From NCBI GenBank assembly GCA_020353515.1, contig CP070695.1:2578155-2642154 (forward strand): a DNA stretch of 64,000 nucleotides, given 5' to 3'. The DNA comes from Candidatus Heimdallarchaeota archaeon. Its GTDB lineage: Archaea; Asgardarchaeota; Heimdallarchaeia; Hodarchaeales; Hodarchaeaceae. Within the stretch, counting starts at the first letter, position 1. The number at the start of each line of letters is the position of its first letter. Below the pieces are notes generated by a model, which worked only from the letters and a program-made list of their open reading frames with translations, did no database searches and was not told where the DNA came from. This document shows positions 29,390-61,553 of this stretch, in pieces. Made by a program: the position numbers and the translations under genes.

Positions 29390-29809
29390 TTATGCAACAA
29401 GAGTAGTAATATCTACCTTGCTTACGCCCTTTATTTCTGCTAATTCGTCTTTTAGTTGCTCTTGTGAGATAGTTAAGTCACTAGAATCTAAGTAGCCTTC
29501 ATACGTACAGCTATCTTGTGTGAAACACAGTCCTGTGCTATAAAGGGTCTTTATTTTACTTCTCATGAAGACAACACCTAACTCTTGCAAAAAGTCAGGG
29601 GACAGCTCACCGATTTCAATTGCTACCTTTACAACTTCCGGACTTTTCGTGGGAATAATCCTAATGATTTTTGTTGAGGGAGCAAGGATCATTACTGCTG
29701 AACTTTCTTCAACATCTTTAGGTCGTAATGTCTCAAGAAAATCAGCTGGAAGGGAAATCGGTTTTGACTCTTGAAGTTGAATCATTTTTGCGATAGTTAC
29801 AGCAGACAT
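29390..29809 (-). CDS. Small protein with C-terminal ACT-like domain
   Basis: VKVAIEIGELSPDFLQELGVVF...LKDELAEIKGVSKVDI beta-alpha-beta-beta-alpha-beta pattern. Confidence 0.55.
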   Translation of the reverse strand: MSAVTIAKMIQLQESKPISLPADFLETLRPKDVEESSAVMILAPSTKIIRIIPTKSPEVVKVAIEIGELSPDFLQELGVVFMRSKIKTLYSTGLCFTQDSCTYEGYLDSSDLTISQEQLKDELAEIKGVSKVDITTLVA

Positions 29810-30458
29810 TTATCATATGGCCTCCGCTATTTCTTCTATTATTCTTTATGATCTTCAGGGGTTTCTTATGTTTTGAGCTGCTTGCATAGCAAAAGCTCTA
29901 TTACAAACAATTTGGATTGATATGTATTTATTAAGGTTTTTATTTTTGCGTGAATTTCAAATTTTTTTGCGAGAAATTCGAATTGAACCTTTACCTCACA
30001 ATATCGAAAATCATTAAGACTGGGTGAAGTTAGGTGTGTTTGTGAGGGCTTGAGAGGTAAGTTCCTCAAAAATATTTTTTGTTAAAAAAACCTATAAAAC
30101 ACCTTTTTAATAGGATCCAATTAATCATCAGTTACGGATTTCAACTTTTTTGAATTAAAATCGCTCAAAAATTTTGATAATTCATTTTTCAGCTTGGATT
30201 ATCTTATTAGAGTGTTTAACTATTTTGGGATCTCTAACTTAAATAGTTTAGTCTAGACCAATTGTAACTTAACTTGATCAGATTGAGTATTCGATGAAAG
30301 AAGATTCTTTAGTTTGAAAAAATGGTGATAATTTACTGATAACAAATTATTGAAAGGTTATTCTTATAAAACACTCATCAGACCTATTTTTTTTGATCAA
30401 ACAACATCCCCTGTTTTACTCCTATTGTGGGTAAGATAATTTTGTGGGGAATTAAGAT

Positions 30459-31085
30459 ATGGTATTAGATAGAGATATTCGGCTAACAATACTTGGAAAT
30501 ACTGGTGTGGGAAAAACTAGTCTCATAAAGCGTTTGAAAGGAGAAGATCCCACAATGACTGAGAAAACCATGGATATTATTGTCGAAAAGAAGAAAATAA
30601 CTCTTCTATCCAGCAGCAGGCAATCAAAACTCTCTTTGGAGCGGTACAGAAAATATAATGTTATTGCAGTGGATAATCCTGGTGACTTCAAATTACGCCG
30701 AAAATGGCGTGATGCGATGAGAAAATACAAAACTGATGGTATTTTATTTATGCTAGATCCTTCACAAGGCATTGAAAGCCAGAGAGTCGCTATGGAAGAT
30801 TCTTTCAACTATTTTCTGGATAGCTTGAGTTTAGATCCTGATAAAGCAGATAAGAAGGCAAAAAAGAAAAAAACTCTCTTTTTTTTTGTAGTAAATAAAA
30901 TGGATACAATTGATAATGACGAAGAGAAAGCAAAAATCTTTCTTGAAAACTTCGATACAGTTATTGAAGACTATAAAATGACATTCCTGTTTGCTAAATT
31001 TGCACAAGCATTCATTAGTGTTCATAAATCGCCATATGAGGAAATCGACTCAATTTTTGAAAAGTGTAAGCAGGCATTATACTGA
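30459..31085 (+). CDS. Divergent small P-loop GTPase
   Basis: G1 GNTGVGKT, G3 DNPGD, GILFMLD, G4 NKMD, G5-like ISVH. Confidence 0.85.
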   Translation: MVLDRDIRLTILGNTGVGKTSLIKRLKGEDPTMTEKTMDIIVEKKKITLLSSSRQSKLSLERYRKYNVIAVDNPGDFKLRRKWRDAMRKYKTDGILFMLDPSQGIESQRVAMEDSFNYFLDSLSLDPDKADKKAKKKKTLFFFVVNKMDTIDNDEEKAKIFLENFDTVIEDYKMTFLFAKFAQAFISVHKSPYEEIDSIFEKCKQALY

Positions 31086-31100
31086 TGGATTCTGACTTGT

Positions 31101-31919
31101 ATGGGAAAAATACATCAAGTAATTGTACGAAATGTTCCTGAAAAAGGGCTAGATGTTGTAGCTACAGATCTGTTAAAGAGTCAAATCCAGAATATTTCCT
31201 TATTTCTTCCAGAAGAAGAACTTTCTGATTTTAATAAAGTATTTTTAACTAAATTTCATCACTCTTCTGGTAATGTTGTCTTACGATTCACATTTGATGA
31301 TGGAACCGACCGTTTTGGACGTCAATCAATTAAAACTCATTCACTTATTATCAACAATGCTTTCTATAATGAGAAAACTCTTCAATACTTTATCTCCCCC
31401 CTGATAAATGGATCTATGAATATTGATGACGATAGAATTTTGGAAAAGAATGATTTTGAAATGCTAGAGACTCATCCAATATCATCAAAATTTACAGAGA
31501 TCATTTTATGTAAAAAACGAATTCAACTGACTAGTCAAAAAGAAATAGACCCAACTGTTCTAATTCAATTATTCGGATCTTTTGATCGTTTAATACCTCC
31601 TCCGTTGAATCCGTCCTTTTCATTCCAAACTATGGTTTTTCCAGGTCACAAAAATACAATTAAAACTCATGATCTAATTTTCTCAATCGAAAAATTACCC
31701 CATTCACAATCAATCGAAAAAATTCAAACAGAAAAATCTGAATTTACAACTATTCAAGCAATAACTGATTCTATTTCAGATTTACCCTTGCTTAGGCAAC
31801 TACAACGGCAATTATTCTTAGAGATCCCAGAAAGATGGCTGAGAATAAAGATTCAATGGCGATTTGGAGTCAAAAAATTTTCTGATATTCGAGAGAATAT
31901 AAATAACTATTTTACATAA
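31101..31919 (+). CDS. GTPase-associated protein, GAP1-N/GAP1-M (DENN-like) candidate
   Basis: GTDRFGRQSIKTHSLII and IILCKKRIQL...FDRLIPPPLNPSFSFQT motifs; 15 bp after the GTPase. Confidence 0.55.
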   Translation: MGKIHQVIVRNVPEKGLDVVATDLLKSQIQNISLFLPEEELSDFNKVFLTKFHHSSGNVVLRFTFDDGTDRFGRQSIKTHSLIINNAFYNEKTLQYFISPLINGSMNIDDDRILEKNDFEMLETHPISSKFTEIILCKKRIQLTSQKEIDPTVLIQLFGSFDRLIPPPLNPSFSFQTMVFPGHKNTIKTHDLIFSIEKLPHSQSIEKIQTEKSEFTTIQAITDSISDLPLLRQLQRQLFLEIPERWLRIKIQWRFGVKKFSDIRENINNYFT

Positions 31920-32135
31920 TTATTTCTTAGATTTGTCGTCTTTCAGAAGTTTACGTATACTTTGGACTACATCAGGATCAGGATCCTCTAAAACAGCTTT
32001 CTTTAAATTCACTTCACACCTCGAGAGATTATATTTTGCAAGATATTGAGCTGCAAACATCCGCTCGAATTTATCAGGGTCCTCATGTAGTTTTTTTATC
32101 AGTATTTCAACGTTTTTTCGATTTTGTTTTGTCAA
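31920..32135 (-). CDS. Small HEAT-repeat protein
   Basis: LHEDPDKFERMFAAQYL...VLEDPDPDVVQSIRKLL. Confidence 0.65.
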   Translation of the reverse strand: MTKQNRKNVEILIKKLHEDPDKFERMFAAQYLAKYNLSRCEVNLKKAVLEDPDPDVVQSIRKLLKDDKSKK

Positions 32136-59392: not shown

Positions 59393-59720
59393 AGATCAAT
59401 TCTCCTTATTCCTGTCTTTCTAAATCTTTTGAAATTTTATAAAGATTCGTAATTAGAACGTGAAAGTATTTGTTCAATCCCCGAGTAATCTCTATATTGA
59501 TGAAGTGGCGAGGTTTAATGAAGAAATTCAACTGTTAACGGAGCCAAAAAGGGATAGACTTAGTAATAACAATTAATAGTGTTATTTTCGTCATTATTTT
59601 TTTAAGGAAAGAGGGGATGTTATCAAAGATCCATAATTTCGAAACATAATTCTGAAAATTCTTTAAGAGAAAATAATGCAAGGAAAACTGAACCAGAATT
59701 AAATGGAGTAACCTTAGAAA

Positions 59721-61553
59721 ATGCGTATTGTTGTTTTGGATACCGATAAGTGTAAACCCAAGAGATGTGTGAAGGAATGCCGTGGTTCCTGTCCAGTTGT
59801 CCGCTCAGGAACCGAAATGTTCGAATTTGAAACGCCTGTTTCCCAACCAATCATCTATGAACAGTTTTGTACTGGATGTGGAATTTGTCCAAAAGCGTGT
59901 CGATTTCATGCTCTCTCAATTATTAACACTCCTGAACGATTAGACAAAGACTTAACTCATAGATTCGGGAGAAATGGGTTCACATTATTTCGATTACCTG
60001 TTATCAAACCAAAAAAGGTGAATGGTTTAGTTGGTCAGAATGGAGTGGGTAAATCAACGGCATTAAAGATCCTATCTGGGGATATCATACCTAATTTTGG
60101 AGTTCATGAGGAGAAACCTACTTGGGAGCGTGTCCACGAGTATTACAAGGGAACTGAGCTCCAGAATTATTTCCAAAAAATGATTGAAAACAAAATTAAA
60201 TGTGTTCGTAAACCACAATACATTGATACCATTGCTAAACACGTTAAGGGAACTGTAAAGGATGTTATAACCCGATTTGATGAAAGAAACGTCCTTGATG
60301 AAATCCAAGAAGATTTAGCTCTTCAAGAAATCTGGAATCGTAACATTAAACTCCTCTCAGGTGGAGAACTTCAGAAACTAGCTGTCGCTGTAGCAATGGT
60401 TCGTGATATGGATATCTATCTATTTGATGAGCCTTCTTCCTTTCTTGATATTAACGAGCGTCTTCGGGTCGGAGTAGCTATTAGAAGCCTAAACGATCAT
60501 GGAAAGACTGTAGTTATTGTTGAACATGATTTAGCTGTGTTAGATTACCTTTCTGATTATGTTACTACTTTTTATGGCACTCCATCATCCTATGGTATAA
60601 TTTCCCAACCATATACCGAAAAAGAAGGAATAAATGTATTTCTTGATGGCTTTATCCCTTCAGAAAACATGAGATTCCGTGATTACTCTATTATCATTCA
60701 AAAATCGTCAGTAAGAGAGAAAAGTATTGTTTCTGACGAAATACTATCTTACCAGGATCTTTCAAAAATCTTTAAACAGAGTAATTTCTCTTTAGACGTT
60801 AGAAAAGGAATGATTCATCAAAATGAGATCATTGGAATATTAGGTCCAAATGGAATTGGAAAAACTACCTTTATAAAGATGTTAGCGGGCCTAGAATCCC
60901 CTACTTCAGGAACAGTAGATCGGGTAATTCTGGATAACCAACCAGATAATGAAAATGCTAATTCGACTGATGTTCTCCGAGTAGCGTATAAACCTCAATA
61001 TATATCTTTAAATGGAGACCAAACGGTAGAAGCTTTTCTCTTGGAAACAGGAGGAGCAATTGTCGCCACGTCCCAATTTCAAAGCGAGTTTATCCGTCCT
61101 TTTCAATTGACAGAGCTATTTGATCAATCACTTAAGTATTTGAGTGGAGGGGAACTACAAAAAGTCGCTATTGTAAGCACTTTAGCCAAAGATGCCGATT
61201 TATACTTATTTGACGAACCATCAGCGTTTTTGTCAATTGAGGACAGATTAACTGCAGCTAAGATCATCCGAAGACTAATTAAGAGTCGGAAGGCTGCAAG
61301 TTTTATTGTAGAGCACGATATCGTTTTCCAAGATTATGCAAGTGATCGGATAATTGTTTTTCTTGGACAATCAGGCGTTTATGGGAAAGCTTATTCCCCA
61401 TCTCCCGTTAGAACAGGGATGAACCGATTTCTTGGAAATTTAAAAATCACTTTTCGACGTGATCCTAAGAGTGGGCGTCCCCGAGTAAATAAAACTGATT
61501 CTAAGCTTGATCGCCTCCAGAAAAACCAAGGCGAATATTATTATGAGAAGTGA
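59721..61553 (+). CDS. abce1: ABCE1/Rli1 ribosome recycling ATPase
   Basis: N-terminal Fe-S Cys cluster; two NBDs (GQNGVGKS, GPNGIGKT, LSGGELQ); RPRVNK..S. Confidence 0.97.
   Translation: MRIVVLDTDKCKPKRCVKECRGSCPVVRSGTEMFEFETPVSQPIIYEQFCTGCGICPKACRFHALSIINTPERLDKDLTHRFGRNGFTLFRLPVIKPKKVNGLVGQNGVGKSTALKILSGDIIPNFGVHEEKPTWERVHEYYKGTELQNYFQKMIENKIKCVRKPQYIDTIAKHVKGTVKDVITRFDERNVLDEIQEDLALQEIWNRNIKLLSGGELQKLAVAVAMVRDMDIYLFDEPSSFLDINERLRVGVAIRSLNDHGKTVVIVEHDLAVLDYLSDYVTTFYGTPSSYGIISQPYTEKEGINVFLDGFIPSENMRFRDYSIIIQKSSVREKSIVSDEILSYQDLSKIFKQSNFSLDVRKGMIHQNEIIGILGPNGIGKTTFIKMLAGLESPTSGTVDRVILDNQPDNENANSTDVLRVAYKPQYISLNGDQTVEAFLLETGGAIVATSQFQSEFIRPFQLTELFDQSLKYLSGGELQKVAIVSTLAKDADLYLFDEPSAFLSIEDRLTAAKIIRRLIKSRKAASFIVEHDIVFQDYASDRIIVFLGQSGVYGKAYSPSPVRTGMNRFLGNLKITFRRDPKSGRPRVNKTDSKLDRLQKNQGEYYYEK

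Follow-up and report, generated by a model that had tools for sequence, protein, structure and literature searches.

A Hodarchaeal operon pairing a divergent small GTPase with a GAP1-related protein of predicted longin-DENN fold

A two-gene operon in Hodarchaeales

Hodarchaeales, a group of Asgard archaea, carry a two-gene operon that pairs a divergent small GTPase with a 272-residue partner protein. Here, we describe that operon in a window of 64,000 nucleotides (positions 2,578,155 to 2,642,154 of contig CP070695.1) from the complete 4.94-Mb genome of a Hodarchaeales archaeon. The partner is predicted to fold as a longin-DENN module and, by profile comparison, appears to belong to the superfamily of GTPase-associated protein 1 (GAP1). 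Because the gene for such a protein adjoins the gene for a GTPase that lacks the catalytic glutamine, the partner likely controls the nucleotide cycle of the GTPase. Specifically, we propose, with a probability of roughly 0.7, that the partner is dedicated to the GTPase, binds it, and sets its nucleotide state. The elements of the locus are as follows.

29810 to 30458, no strand: long intergenic region of 649 bp shared with a divergent gene of 139 codons, a possible regulatory region (nucleotide conservation)
30459 to 31085, + strand: divergent Ras-superfamily small GTPase, 208 amino acids (open reading frame [ORF], Pfam, AlphaFold [AF2] model, and structural matches)
31086 to 31100, + strand: 15-nt spacer between the GTPase and partner genes, without a terminator-like site (sequence scan)
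31101 to 31919, + strand: GAP1-homologous partner of predicted longin-DENN fold, 272 amino acids (ORF, homologues, AF2 model, and fold and homology comparisons)

The GTPase gene ends with a TGA codon at 31083 to 31085, the partner gene opens with an ATG at 31101, and nothing resembling a terminator was found between them. An earlier sequence-only reading of the window had placed the two genes 15 bp apart behind an intergenic region of about 650 bp, and the ORF coordinates match that layout exactly. The pairing extends beyond this genome. Both genes were found in 18 same-genus genomes, and in every one they lie on the same contig and the same strand, 18 to 30 nt apart. Diverged pairs are also adjacent in four further sublineages, where the GTPase is 55 to 68% identical to that of the window (locus L023 was left unscored) and the partner, in the three compared, is 23 to 31% identical. 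We conclude that the GTPase and its partner form a two-gene operon conserved in Hodarchaeales. Identity to the window proteins falls in parallel for both products, with the partner diverging about three times faster, and this parallel could come from kinship alone.

Two observations weigh against an exclusive pairing. Heimdallarchaeaceae-like genomes have both the GTPase (42 to 46% identical to that of the window in the two loci compared) and a partner-like protein of 292 to 314 residues, and the two genes are unlinked. Moreover, a paralogous GTPase, 56% identical, is encoded elsewhere in this genome (G000:C1:4630147-4630809, - strand; positions 1492 to 2160 of locus L009) with no partner-family gene beside it; a gene for a 124-residue membrane-like protein follows instead. 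Besides this genome, 19 of 21 further genomes of the genus that were searched conserve the paralogue as a second copy. Thus, pairing is not obligatory at the level of gene order. The equivalent paralogue of another Hodarchaeales bin (L005), by contrast, is accompanied by a partner-family gene of 279 codons. The genes found 3' of the GTPase orthologue in Heimdallarchaeaceae-like genomes (261 to 297 codons) were considered as partners and rejected, as they encode unrelated CxxCxxCC and response-regulator proteins.

The partner is predicted to combine longin and DENN lobes

The AlphaFold model of the partner (pLDDT 78, pTM 0.78) consists of an N lobe, a low-confidence linker (residues 98 to 112), an alpha/beta lobe, and a helical tail, which correspond to the following parts of the gene.

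31101 to 31466, + strand: N lobe (residues 1 to 122), longin/uDENN/GAP1-N-like, of topology beta-beta-alpha-beta-beta-beta-alpha
31467 to 31700, + strand: central alpha/beta lobe (residues ~123 to 200), cDENN/GAP1-M-like, with a folliculin DENN match and a weak GAP1-M match in a family member
31701 to 31916, + strand: C-terminal helical region (residues ~201 to 272), dDENN-like, with helices at residues 205 to 270 and pLDDT about 90

At the level of fold, a longin (uDENN) domain, an alpha/beta DENN domain, and a helical dDENN are all present in the predicted model. The likeness to DENN proteins suggested from sequence was borne out when the model was compared to the PDB with Foldseek: the first four matches were complexes of DENND1B or DENND1A with Rab35 (E of 5e-5 to 3e-4, probability 1.00), and the next included FNIP2, DENND10, C9orf72-SMCR8, the longin of Lst4, and bacterial TagF. 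Exhaustive comparison with VIA-align also matched the full-length partner to DENND10 (Z score of 10.1 over 235 residues, model residues 1 to 262) and DENND1A (Z 9.9 over 252 residues, model residues 1 to 272). The two-lobed architecture is therefore common to the partner over its full length and to DENND1A/B (PDB 6ekk and 3tw8) and DENND10 (8p0v). When the lobes were taken separately, residues 1 to 123 matched a Lokiarchaeal longin (Z 8.9), FNIP2 (8.5), Lst4 (7.5), Npr2 (7.3), and NPRL2 (7.0), with SMCR8 and C9orf72 also at 7.0 to 7.5, and residues 122/123 to 262 matched the C-terminal DENN domain of folliculin (Z 7.6 and 7.3). We conclude that the partner, as modeled, is a longin plus DENN module.

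Eukaryotic DENN proteins likewise pair with a small GTPase, but the partner differs from the eukaryotic module in several ways. Identity is 7 to 12%, the root mean square deviation is about 5 Å, the partner is about 100 residues shorter, and it has no match to the Pfam DENN, uDENN, or dDENN models. Moreover, it is nearer to GAP1 models (template modeling [TM] score of 0.77) than to DENND1 (Foldseek TM score of 0.45). Prediction of a complex of GTPase and partner, each supplied with its alignment, gave ipSAE values of 0.00 and 0.02, which weigh neither way on binding.

Relation of the partner to GAP1

GAP1 proteins are represented in Pfam by GAP1-N1 (PF20012), GAP1-N2 (PF20013), and GAP1-M (PF20014) and occur in the DO-GTPase systems described by Kaur, Burroughs, Iyer, and Aravind (eLife 2020; PMC7159879). 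In the literature searched, that paper alone uses the GAP1 domain names, and it makes no mention of DENN or longin. A structure search of the ESM Atlas with the partner returned only GAP1-N1, GAP1-N2, and GAP1-M clusters (TM score of 0.65 to 0.77 over 235 to 262 residues). A language-model search of the same Atlas gave a score of 0.94 with 197 of 256 features shared, and all 10 of the best named matches were GAP1. For a comparison of sequences, PF20013 was searched against 400 Asgard genomes; proteins above the cutoff were found in seven, each encoded immediately 3' of a DO-GTPase1-like gene. Eight PF20013 matches from Asgard genomes, of which seven pass the Pfam cutoff, served as the hhalign target for a 22-member alignment of the partner family that reaches down to 19% identity. 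The two matched with a probability of 95.8% (E 7.3e-9, 188 columns), and D70-x-F-G-R74...H80 of the partner fell on D-x-F-G-R...H of GAP1 and L-I-P166 on L-L-P. Because the match to GAP1-N2 proteins aligns both motif blocks, we take the partner to be a remote, shortened member of the GAP1 superfamily, with GAP1-N-like and GAP1-M-like parts and a helical tail.

The two blocks had been picked out by the sequence-only reading, which took them for GAP1-N and GAP1-M signatures. They read DRFGR-QSIKT-HSLII and ILCKKRIQL...LIPPPLNPSFSFQT, the latter ending in residues 164 to 177. The residues of the first block are as claimed, but its spacing is not, since five residues (QSIKT) rather than four separate R74 from H80; the second block matches as quoted. 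The signatures are real, and hhalign places both motifs on the GAP1 "D.FGR...H" and "LP......S" blocks. In the 22-member alignment, D70, R74, P100, F119, and P166 are invariant, and Q6, G16, H80, and D162 are conserved in at least 90% of members. Conservation thus indicates that the motifs are not chance strings, as they include the most conserved positions of the family. The motifs lie as follows.

31137 to 31154, + strand: P13-E-K-G16-L-D18 loop between strands 1 and 2; P13, G16, L17, and D18 are invariant in one family alignment, and G16 is conserved in at least 90% of the 22-member one
31308 to 31340, + strand: D70-R-F-G-R74-QSIKT-H80 hairpin loop and strand 5, with R74 a candidate arginine finger; D70 and R74 invariant, H80 at least 90%, aligned to GAP1
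31584 to 31631, + strand: D162-R-L-I-P166-P-P-L-NPS-F-S-F-Q-T177 motif; P166 invariant, D162 at least 90%, aligned to GAP1 "LP......S"

Results with curated models weigh against both assignments of the partner. A match to Pfam GAP1-N1/N2, GAP1-M, uDENN, or DENN had been anticipated, and the window protein matched none of them. More broadly, searches of Pfam, NCBIfam, and PADLOC gave no meaningful match for the partner, nor did a Pfam scan of 22 family members, one weak GAP1-M match aside. The GAP1-N1 and GAP1-N2 models did not match the window partner or the 22 family members at E ≤ 10, PF20013 had no match in the whole genome at E ≤ 1, and GAP1-M was found neither in the window partner nor in the genome. 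GAP1-M did match 1 of the 22 family members below threshold (E 0.015, 16 bits against a cutoff of 24), exactly on the D..LP...FSF block. The Pfam DENN, uDENN, dDENN, and folliculin models did not match the partner, PF02141 found nothing in the genome, and a profile search of PDB by sequence found nothing. Because curated hidden Markov models (HMMs) miss the window protein, the GAP1 homology of the partner rests on one profile-profile comparison together with predicted structures.

The partner family is confined to Heimdallarchaeia. Homologues numbered 59 at 90% clustering, with 25 representatives at 50%, all from Heimdallarchaeia-type metagenome bins. In a profile search of the 400 Asgard genomes, the partner family was present in 47, which fall into four taxonomic families of a single class, and absent from the remaining 353. 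A second homologue search with a widened alignment added only two proteins (P0217 and P0218), both of the known partner family. Within this genome the partner is single copy: the partner itself, ten diverged relatives, and an HMM of the 22-member alignment, each used as a query, turned up only that one copy.

The locus resembles the systems of Kaur et al. in that the partner has N and M homology and is encoded directly downstream of a GTPase gene, but it is also simpler. Neither GAP1-C nor a C-terminal variable or effector domain was found in the partner, which stops at residue 272 after the helical tail and falls under every Pfam threshold; among its relatives, a KOW domain is the sole C-terminal extension. 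A third component (GASH/FNIII protein), variable effectors, and a mobile neighborhood, all sought at the window locus and in the related loci L001 and L002, were not found. The setting is instead that of a stable, housekeeping-type locus, and the companion is a Ras-superfamily small GTPase rather than a DO-GTPase. We note that the Asgard GAP1-N2 loci (L040 to L047) encode short forms of 327 to 341 residues and long forms of at least 597 to 624 residues; the latter lengths are lower bounds, as those frames run past the ends of the loci. The short genes are followed by a third gene of ~270 to 280 codons.

A divergent Ras-superfamily GTPase

The GTPase retains the nucleotide-binding motifs of its superfamily, with one substitution at the catalytic position.

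30495 to 30518, + strand: G1/P-loop GNTGVGKT (residues 13 to 20); L12, G13, G16, V17, G18, and K19 invariant among 39 homologues
30672 to 30686, + strand: G3 DNPGD (residues 72 to 76), with an acidic residue at the catalytic-Gln position; D72, P74, and G75 invariant, D76 at least 90%, with Glu in one member
30894 to 30905, + strand: G4 NKMD (residues 146 to 149); N146, K147, and D149 invariant

The absence of the catalytic glutamine, read earlier from the G3 motif, was upheld by the alignment of 39 homologues, in which D76 holds the Gln position; the residue after DxxG is Asp here and Gln in Ras, Arf, and Rab. Pfam matches were weak, generic, and just over their cutoffs (MMR_HSR1, 31 bits; GTP_EFTU, 30; SRPRB, 28.2 against a cutoff of 25; Arf, 22.6). 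The fold of the AF2 model (pLDDT 90) is Ras-like, with an insertion of two short helices that separates strand 2 from strand 3. Its best VIA-align match was Arf6 (Z 18.4 and 18.1), followed by the Lokiarchaeal Rag-like GTPase LokiRagO (17.1), Rab28, RagD, and Sar1, and Foldseek returned Rab, Ras, and Arl structures with E of about 1e-8. Ras-superfamily features are thus present in the G1, G3, and G4 motifs and the Ras-like fold, with the catalytic Gln replaced by Asp. Across Hodarchaeales the protein is 78 to 96% identical. Against the family HMM, the nearest other GTPase of this genome reaches no more than 28 bits, so the window GTPase is an isolated lineage. No CaaX-type C terminus or lipid anchor motif was seen, and with strand 1 beginning at residue 5, an N-terminal amphipathic helix would not fit. 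A polybasic helix (K128 to K137) is conserved.

Could the pair be a reduced or domesticated conflict (defense) system like those that Kaur et al. described? The partner is GAP1 homologous and lies downstream of a GTPase gene, and genuine DO-GTPase/GAP1-N2 operons occur in 7 of the 400 Asgard genomes. DO-GTPases are marked by a Glu in Walker B; Asgard DO-GTPases have DLAGE, and the window GTPase also has an acidic residue after DxxG, though Asp and not Glu. The DO-GTPase Pfam models (PF19975 and PF19993), however, did not match the window GTPase at E ≤ 10, its gene was not among the DO-GTPase Pfam matches of the genome at E ≤ 1, and an HMM of Asgard DO-GTPases missed it while weakly matching the paralogous GTPase (E 1.4e-4). 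By hhalign, the GTPase family matched Asgard DO-GTPases with a probability of 95.5% (E 1.5e-8), but as a control it was closer to the Arf/Rab-like DxxGQ GTPases of its own genome (99%, E 5e-18). We conclude from these comparisons that the protein is best classed as a divergent Ras-superfamily small GTPase and not as a DO-GTPase. In addition, GAP1-C, a GASH/FNIII component, and an effector are all missing at the locus, the partner is single copy, and the strongly conserved GTPase sits in synteny among housekeeping genes, the opposite of a mobile, diversifying system. Anatomy has thus already largely refuted a conflict system, and we consider it very unlikely. Separately, a 611-codon ORF of the window (59718 to 61550, + strand) is the best match of the genome to the Asgard DO-GTPase HMM (E 9e-5, 22 bits) and has a weak match to the P-loop of Pfam DO-GTPase2.

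The pair might also be likened to the eukaryotic signal recognition particle receptor, in which the GTP form of the Arf-related GTPase SR-beta is held by the longin-fold domain SRX. The GTPase matches Pfam SRPRB above its cutoff and SR-beta structures at Z 15.9, and the partner matches the SRX-SR-beta complex (1nrj) at Z 5.3. The SRPRB match, however, is confined to the generic N-terminal half and does not surpass those of MMR_HSR1 or EF-Tu, and the GTPase has no N-terminal membrane anchor. Moreover, the partner has a full DENN lobe where SRX has none, and many other longins score higher. An SR-beta/SRX-like module is, we think, the least probable account of the pair.

How the partner may act on the GTPase

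How the partner might set the nucleotide state is suggested by the GTPase itself. Because Asp replaces the catalytic Gln, the GTPase is predicted from its sequence to hydrolyze GTP poorly on its own, and probably does. GTPases without the Gln need catalytic groups supplied by a GTPase-activating protein (GAP), as when Rap meets RapGAP or Sar1 meets Sec23. In the mechanism that we tentatively favor, the first gene would provide a soluble, Gln-less small GTPase that is slow to hydrolyze, and the second would provide a dedicated regulator, a stripped-down GAP1 homologue with a longin and DENN fold. R74, which precedes strand 5 in a longin-lobe loop beside the P13xxG16 loop, would enter the nucleotide pocket in the manner of NPRL2 R78 in GATOR1 and supply the catalytic group that the GTPase lacks. 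We regard this arginine-finger GAP activity as possible and worth naming, though at somewhat less than even odds.

Four lines of evidence lean toward a GAP. First, the longin lobe holds most of the invariant residues of the partner, its sole invariant Arg among them, in loops before strands 2 and 5, which the topology of the model would place at the same edge of the longin sheet. Second, in the proven longin GAPs NPRL2, FLCN, and SMCR8, a GP motif precedes strand 2 and lies beside the arginine finger (Traffic 2025). These proteins act in GATOR1, with FNIP, and with C9orf72, respectively, and the longin lobe of the partner matches Npr2, NPRL2, FNIP2, SMCR8/C9orf72, and Lst4 at Z 7.0 to 8.5. Third, NPRL2 (6ces_N, residues 10 to 88) reads P17-T-L-G20-P...R78, such that the P-x-x-G pattern is identical and the Gly-to-Arg spacing is 58 residues in both proteins (G16...R74 and G20...R78). 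In the VIA-align alignment with NPRL2, the first aligned position sets residue 2 of the model against chain residue 6, which gives the offset of 4 that the equivalence requires. Fourth, the Gly, Arg, and His of the partner are also conserved in GAP1.

Other observations count against the arginine finger. The partner motif is G-L and not G-P, and the equivalence of R74 and R78 comes from spacing and alignment ranges, in an alignment of 4% identity with about 33 inserted residues of unseen position. Comparison of the partner family with the 79-residue NPRL2 fragment by hhalign gave a probability of 0.3%. Moreover, NPRL2, FLCN, and SMCR8 each pair with a second longin protein, and it is the heterodimer that works on Rag or Arf GTPases; the locus here has only one such gene. 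Finally, the best full-length matches among solved structures are DENND1 exchange factors, and guanine nucleotide exchange factor (GEF) activity was the function predicted by Liu et al., as discussed below.

Exchange is the main alternative to an arginine-finger GAP. As a DENND1-type GEF, the partner would receive the GTPase in the cleft between its lobes, mainly against the DENN lobe, and would open the switch regions to release GDP. The DENND1B and DENND1A complexes with Rab35 argue for such an activity, as does the proposal of Liu et al. for the Asgard Roadblock/GTPase/DENN module, and the conserved D162 and P166 sit in the DENN lobe. The concentration of invariant positions in the longin lobe points the other way, and a Gln-less GTPase is of the type that generally needs a GAP. 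Moreover, FLCN-FNIP and C9orf72-SMCR8 are longin-DENN proteins that act as GAPs, and the activity therefore cannot be read from the fold. We consider a GEF possible but doubtful. R74 is the single residue to which the data point as telling a GAP from a GEF.

In a third role, the partner would serve as an effector or adaptor, sensing the GTP state of the GTPase and passing it on to another machine, for example, the ribosome or the transcription apparatus. In one Hodarchaeales subclade, partner orthologues of 329 to 355 residues end in a KOW domain of ~55 residues and of the Spt5/NusG type (Pfam scores of 28.3 and 24.8 bits against a cutoff of 22.3). These include P0037 (L002, 6001 to 6996) and about 25 others, such as those in the range P0033 to P0056. 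The fusion gives a weak hint, from sequence, of a link to the ribosome or transcription machinery over the membrane. The conserved polybasic helix of a GTPase without a membrane anchor and the housekeeping and information-processing genes nearby are consistent with such a link. The window partner, however, has no KOW domain, a KOW domain could equally be a localization add-on to a regulator, and synteny among close relatives is weak functional evidence. We think an effector quite unlikely.

Returning to the proposal that the partner regulates the GTPase through an arginine finger, we speculate on how it might be generalized. The GAP1 superfamily, taken as the bacterial and archaeal DO-GTPase partners together with the Heimdallarchaeial family, and the longin GAPs NPRL2, FLCN, and SMCR8 may share one catalytic arrangement, with a Gly where strand 2 of the longin lobe starts and an Arg just ahead of strand 5. 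The ancestor of DENN exchange factors and longin-DENN GAP complexes alike could then survive, in single-gene form, in the pair, where a Ras-superfamily GTPase would already have taken the place of the DO-GTPase in those archaea that are closest to eukaryotes. The KOW subclade would report to the ribosome or transcription machinery and not to membranes. Taken as a whole, this joint reading is unlikely. If the arginine-finger idea is true, however, it would give a function to the uncharacterized GAP1 proteins of bacterial conflict systems, and longin-type GAPs would have originated before eukaryotes.

Relation to predicted Asgard GTPase-DENN operons

The origin of the GEFs and GAPs of eukaryotic small GTPases is an open question, and Asgard DENN proteins have so far been known as predictions. 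DENN modules were long held to be restricted to eukaryotes (Zhang et al. 2012), and the DENN fold has since been called common across life in published work. The idea that Zhang et al. 2012 tied TagF to DENN was not borne out. The part of Liu, Makarova et al. on which we draw (bioRxiv 10.1101/2020.10.19.343400; Nature 2021) predicts an Asgard operon of Roadblock (LAMTOR1-like), Rab-like small GTPase, and DENN-domain genes and proposes a GEF function for it. The window resembles that operon in that a small GTPase gene, not of a Rag, adjoins a co-directional gene for a protein of DENN fold. It differs in that no Roadblock gene is present in the operon of the window, of the 18 same-genus genomes, or of loci L001 and L002, and a DENN HMM does not recognize the window partner. 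Closer likenesses are found in more distant loci. In L006 (3289 to 6264), the order is an Arf/Ras-like GTPase (190 residues), the family GTPase (211), a partner-like protein (256 to 259), and a Roadblock/LC7 protein (138 to 141), where the lengths span L006 and L022 together. In L022 (3216 to 6077), the same four-gene order recurs with a gene of similar size at the Roadblock position and no recorded Pfam match, Robl_LC7 being on record for L006 only. The pair there is thus flanked by a Roadblock/LC7 or like-sized gene and an Arf/Ras-like GTPase gene, and the four-gene arrangement is probably a fuller, ancestral form of the module. From these likenesses, we infer that the window partner belongs to the same gene family as the DENN protein of Liu et al.

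The sequence-only reading had offered the pair as a link between prokaryotic GAP1 systems and eukaryotic DENN proteins. The fold and the GAP1 homology support that link, but its newness does not stand, as Asgard GTPase-DENN operons had already been predicted by Liu et al. in 2020. Asgard longins with GP and Arg motifs have likewise been noted in the literature, including Traffic 2025. Since the pairing as such was already predicted, the novelty is moderate. What is added here is the sequence-profile tie to GAP1, the assignment of the companion to the Ras superfamily and not to DO-GTPases, the phyletic range of the partner family, figures for the linkage of the two genes, the KOW fusion, and the catalytic-residue hypothesis. 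The locus suits biochemical and structural work, with a small, soluble, single-copy, and strongly conserved GTPase and a partner of 272 residues.

Neighboring genes and the intergenic region

The operon is flanked by a divergent 139-codon gene (an AbrB/ACT-like orphan), a HEAT minigene, and genes for endonuclease III, a SIS protein, and a Hel308-type helicase, and these are syntenic in L001 and L002. The 139-residue protein (29390 to 29809, - strand) has no Pfam match. Over 11 Hodarchaeales loci it is 96 to 100% identical, compared with 78 to 94% for the GTPase and 46 to 72% for the partner in those loci. The Atlas language model placed it with Asgard-wide hypothetical clusters (0.93 to 0.95), with weaker leads to AbrB/MazE and ACT domain proteins (0.77 to 0.81). 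It is an extraordinarily constrained orphan and possibly a regulator that senses a small molecule.

The intergenic region between the 139-codon gene and the GTPase gene is conserved over its first ~300 nt and its last ~110 nt, at 70 to 84% nucleotide identity in related genomes. The stretch from 29807 to 30120 holds the CCTCC ribosome-binding site of the 139-codon gene and a TATA-like sequence, ATTTATTAAGGTTTTTATTTTT (29924 to 29945). Within it lies an element of ~100 nt (29974 to 30081, + strand) whose conserved ends pair as an 8-bp stem, CCTTTACCTC with GAGGTAAG, around a variable interior, and are followed by a T run. One compensatory pair only was seen in the element, and a search of the intergenic region against Rfam gave a subthreshold match to SCARNA7 (E 0.078) and no family. 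We regard the element as a candidate small RNA or regulatory element.

Downstream of the operon, a HEAT-repeat miniprotein of 71 residues is encoded at 31920 to 32135 on the - strand (HEAT_2, E 3e-4, under the cutoff). Its gene is convergent with the partner gene and ends exactly where the partner gene ends. Its counterpart in L001, of 72 residues, overlaps the end of the partner gene, and in L023 a HEAT protein of 439 residues occupies the same position.

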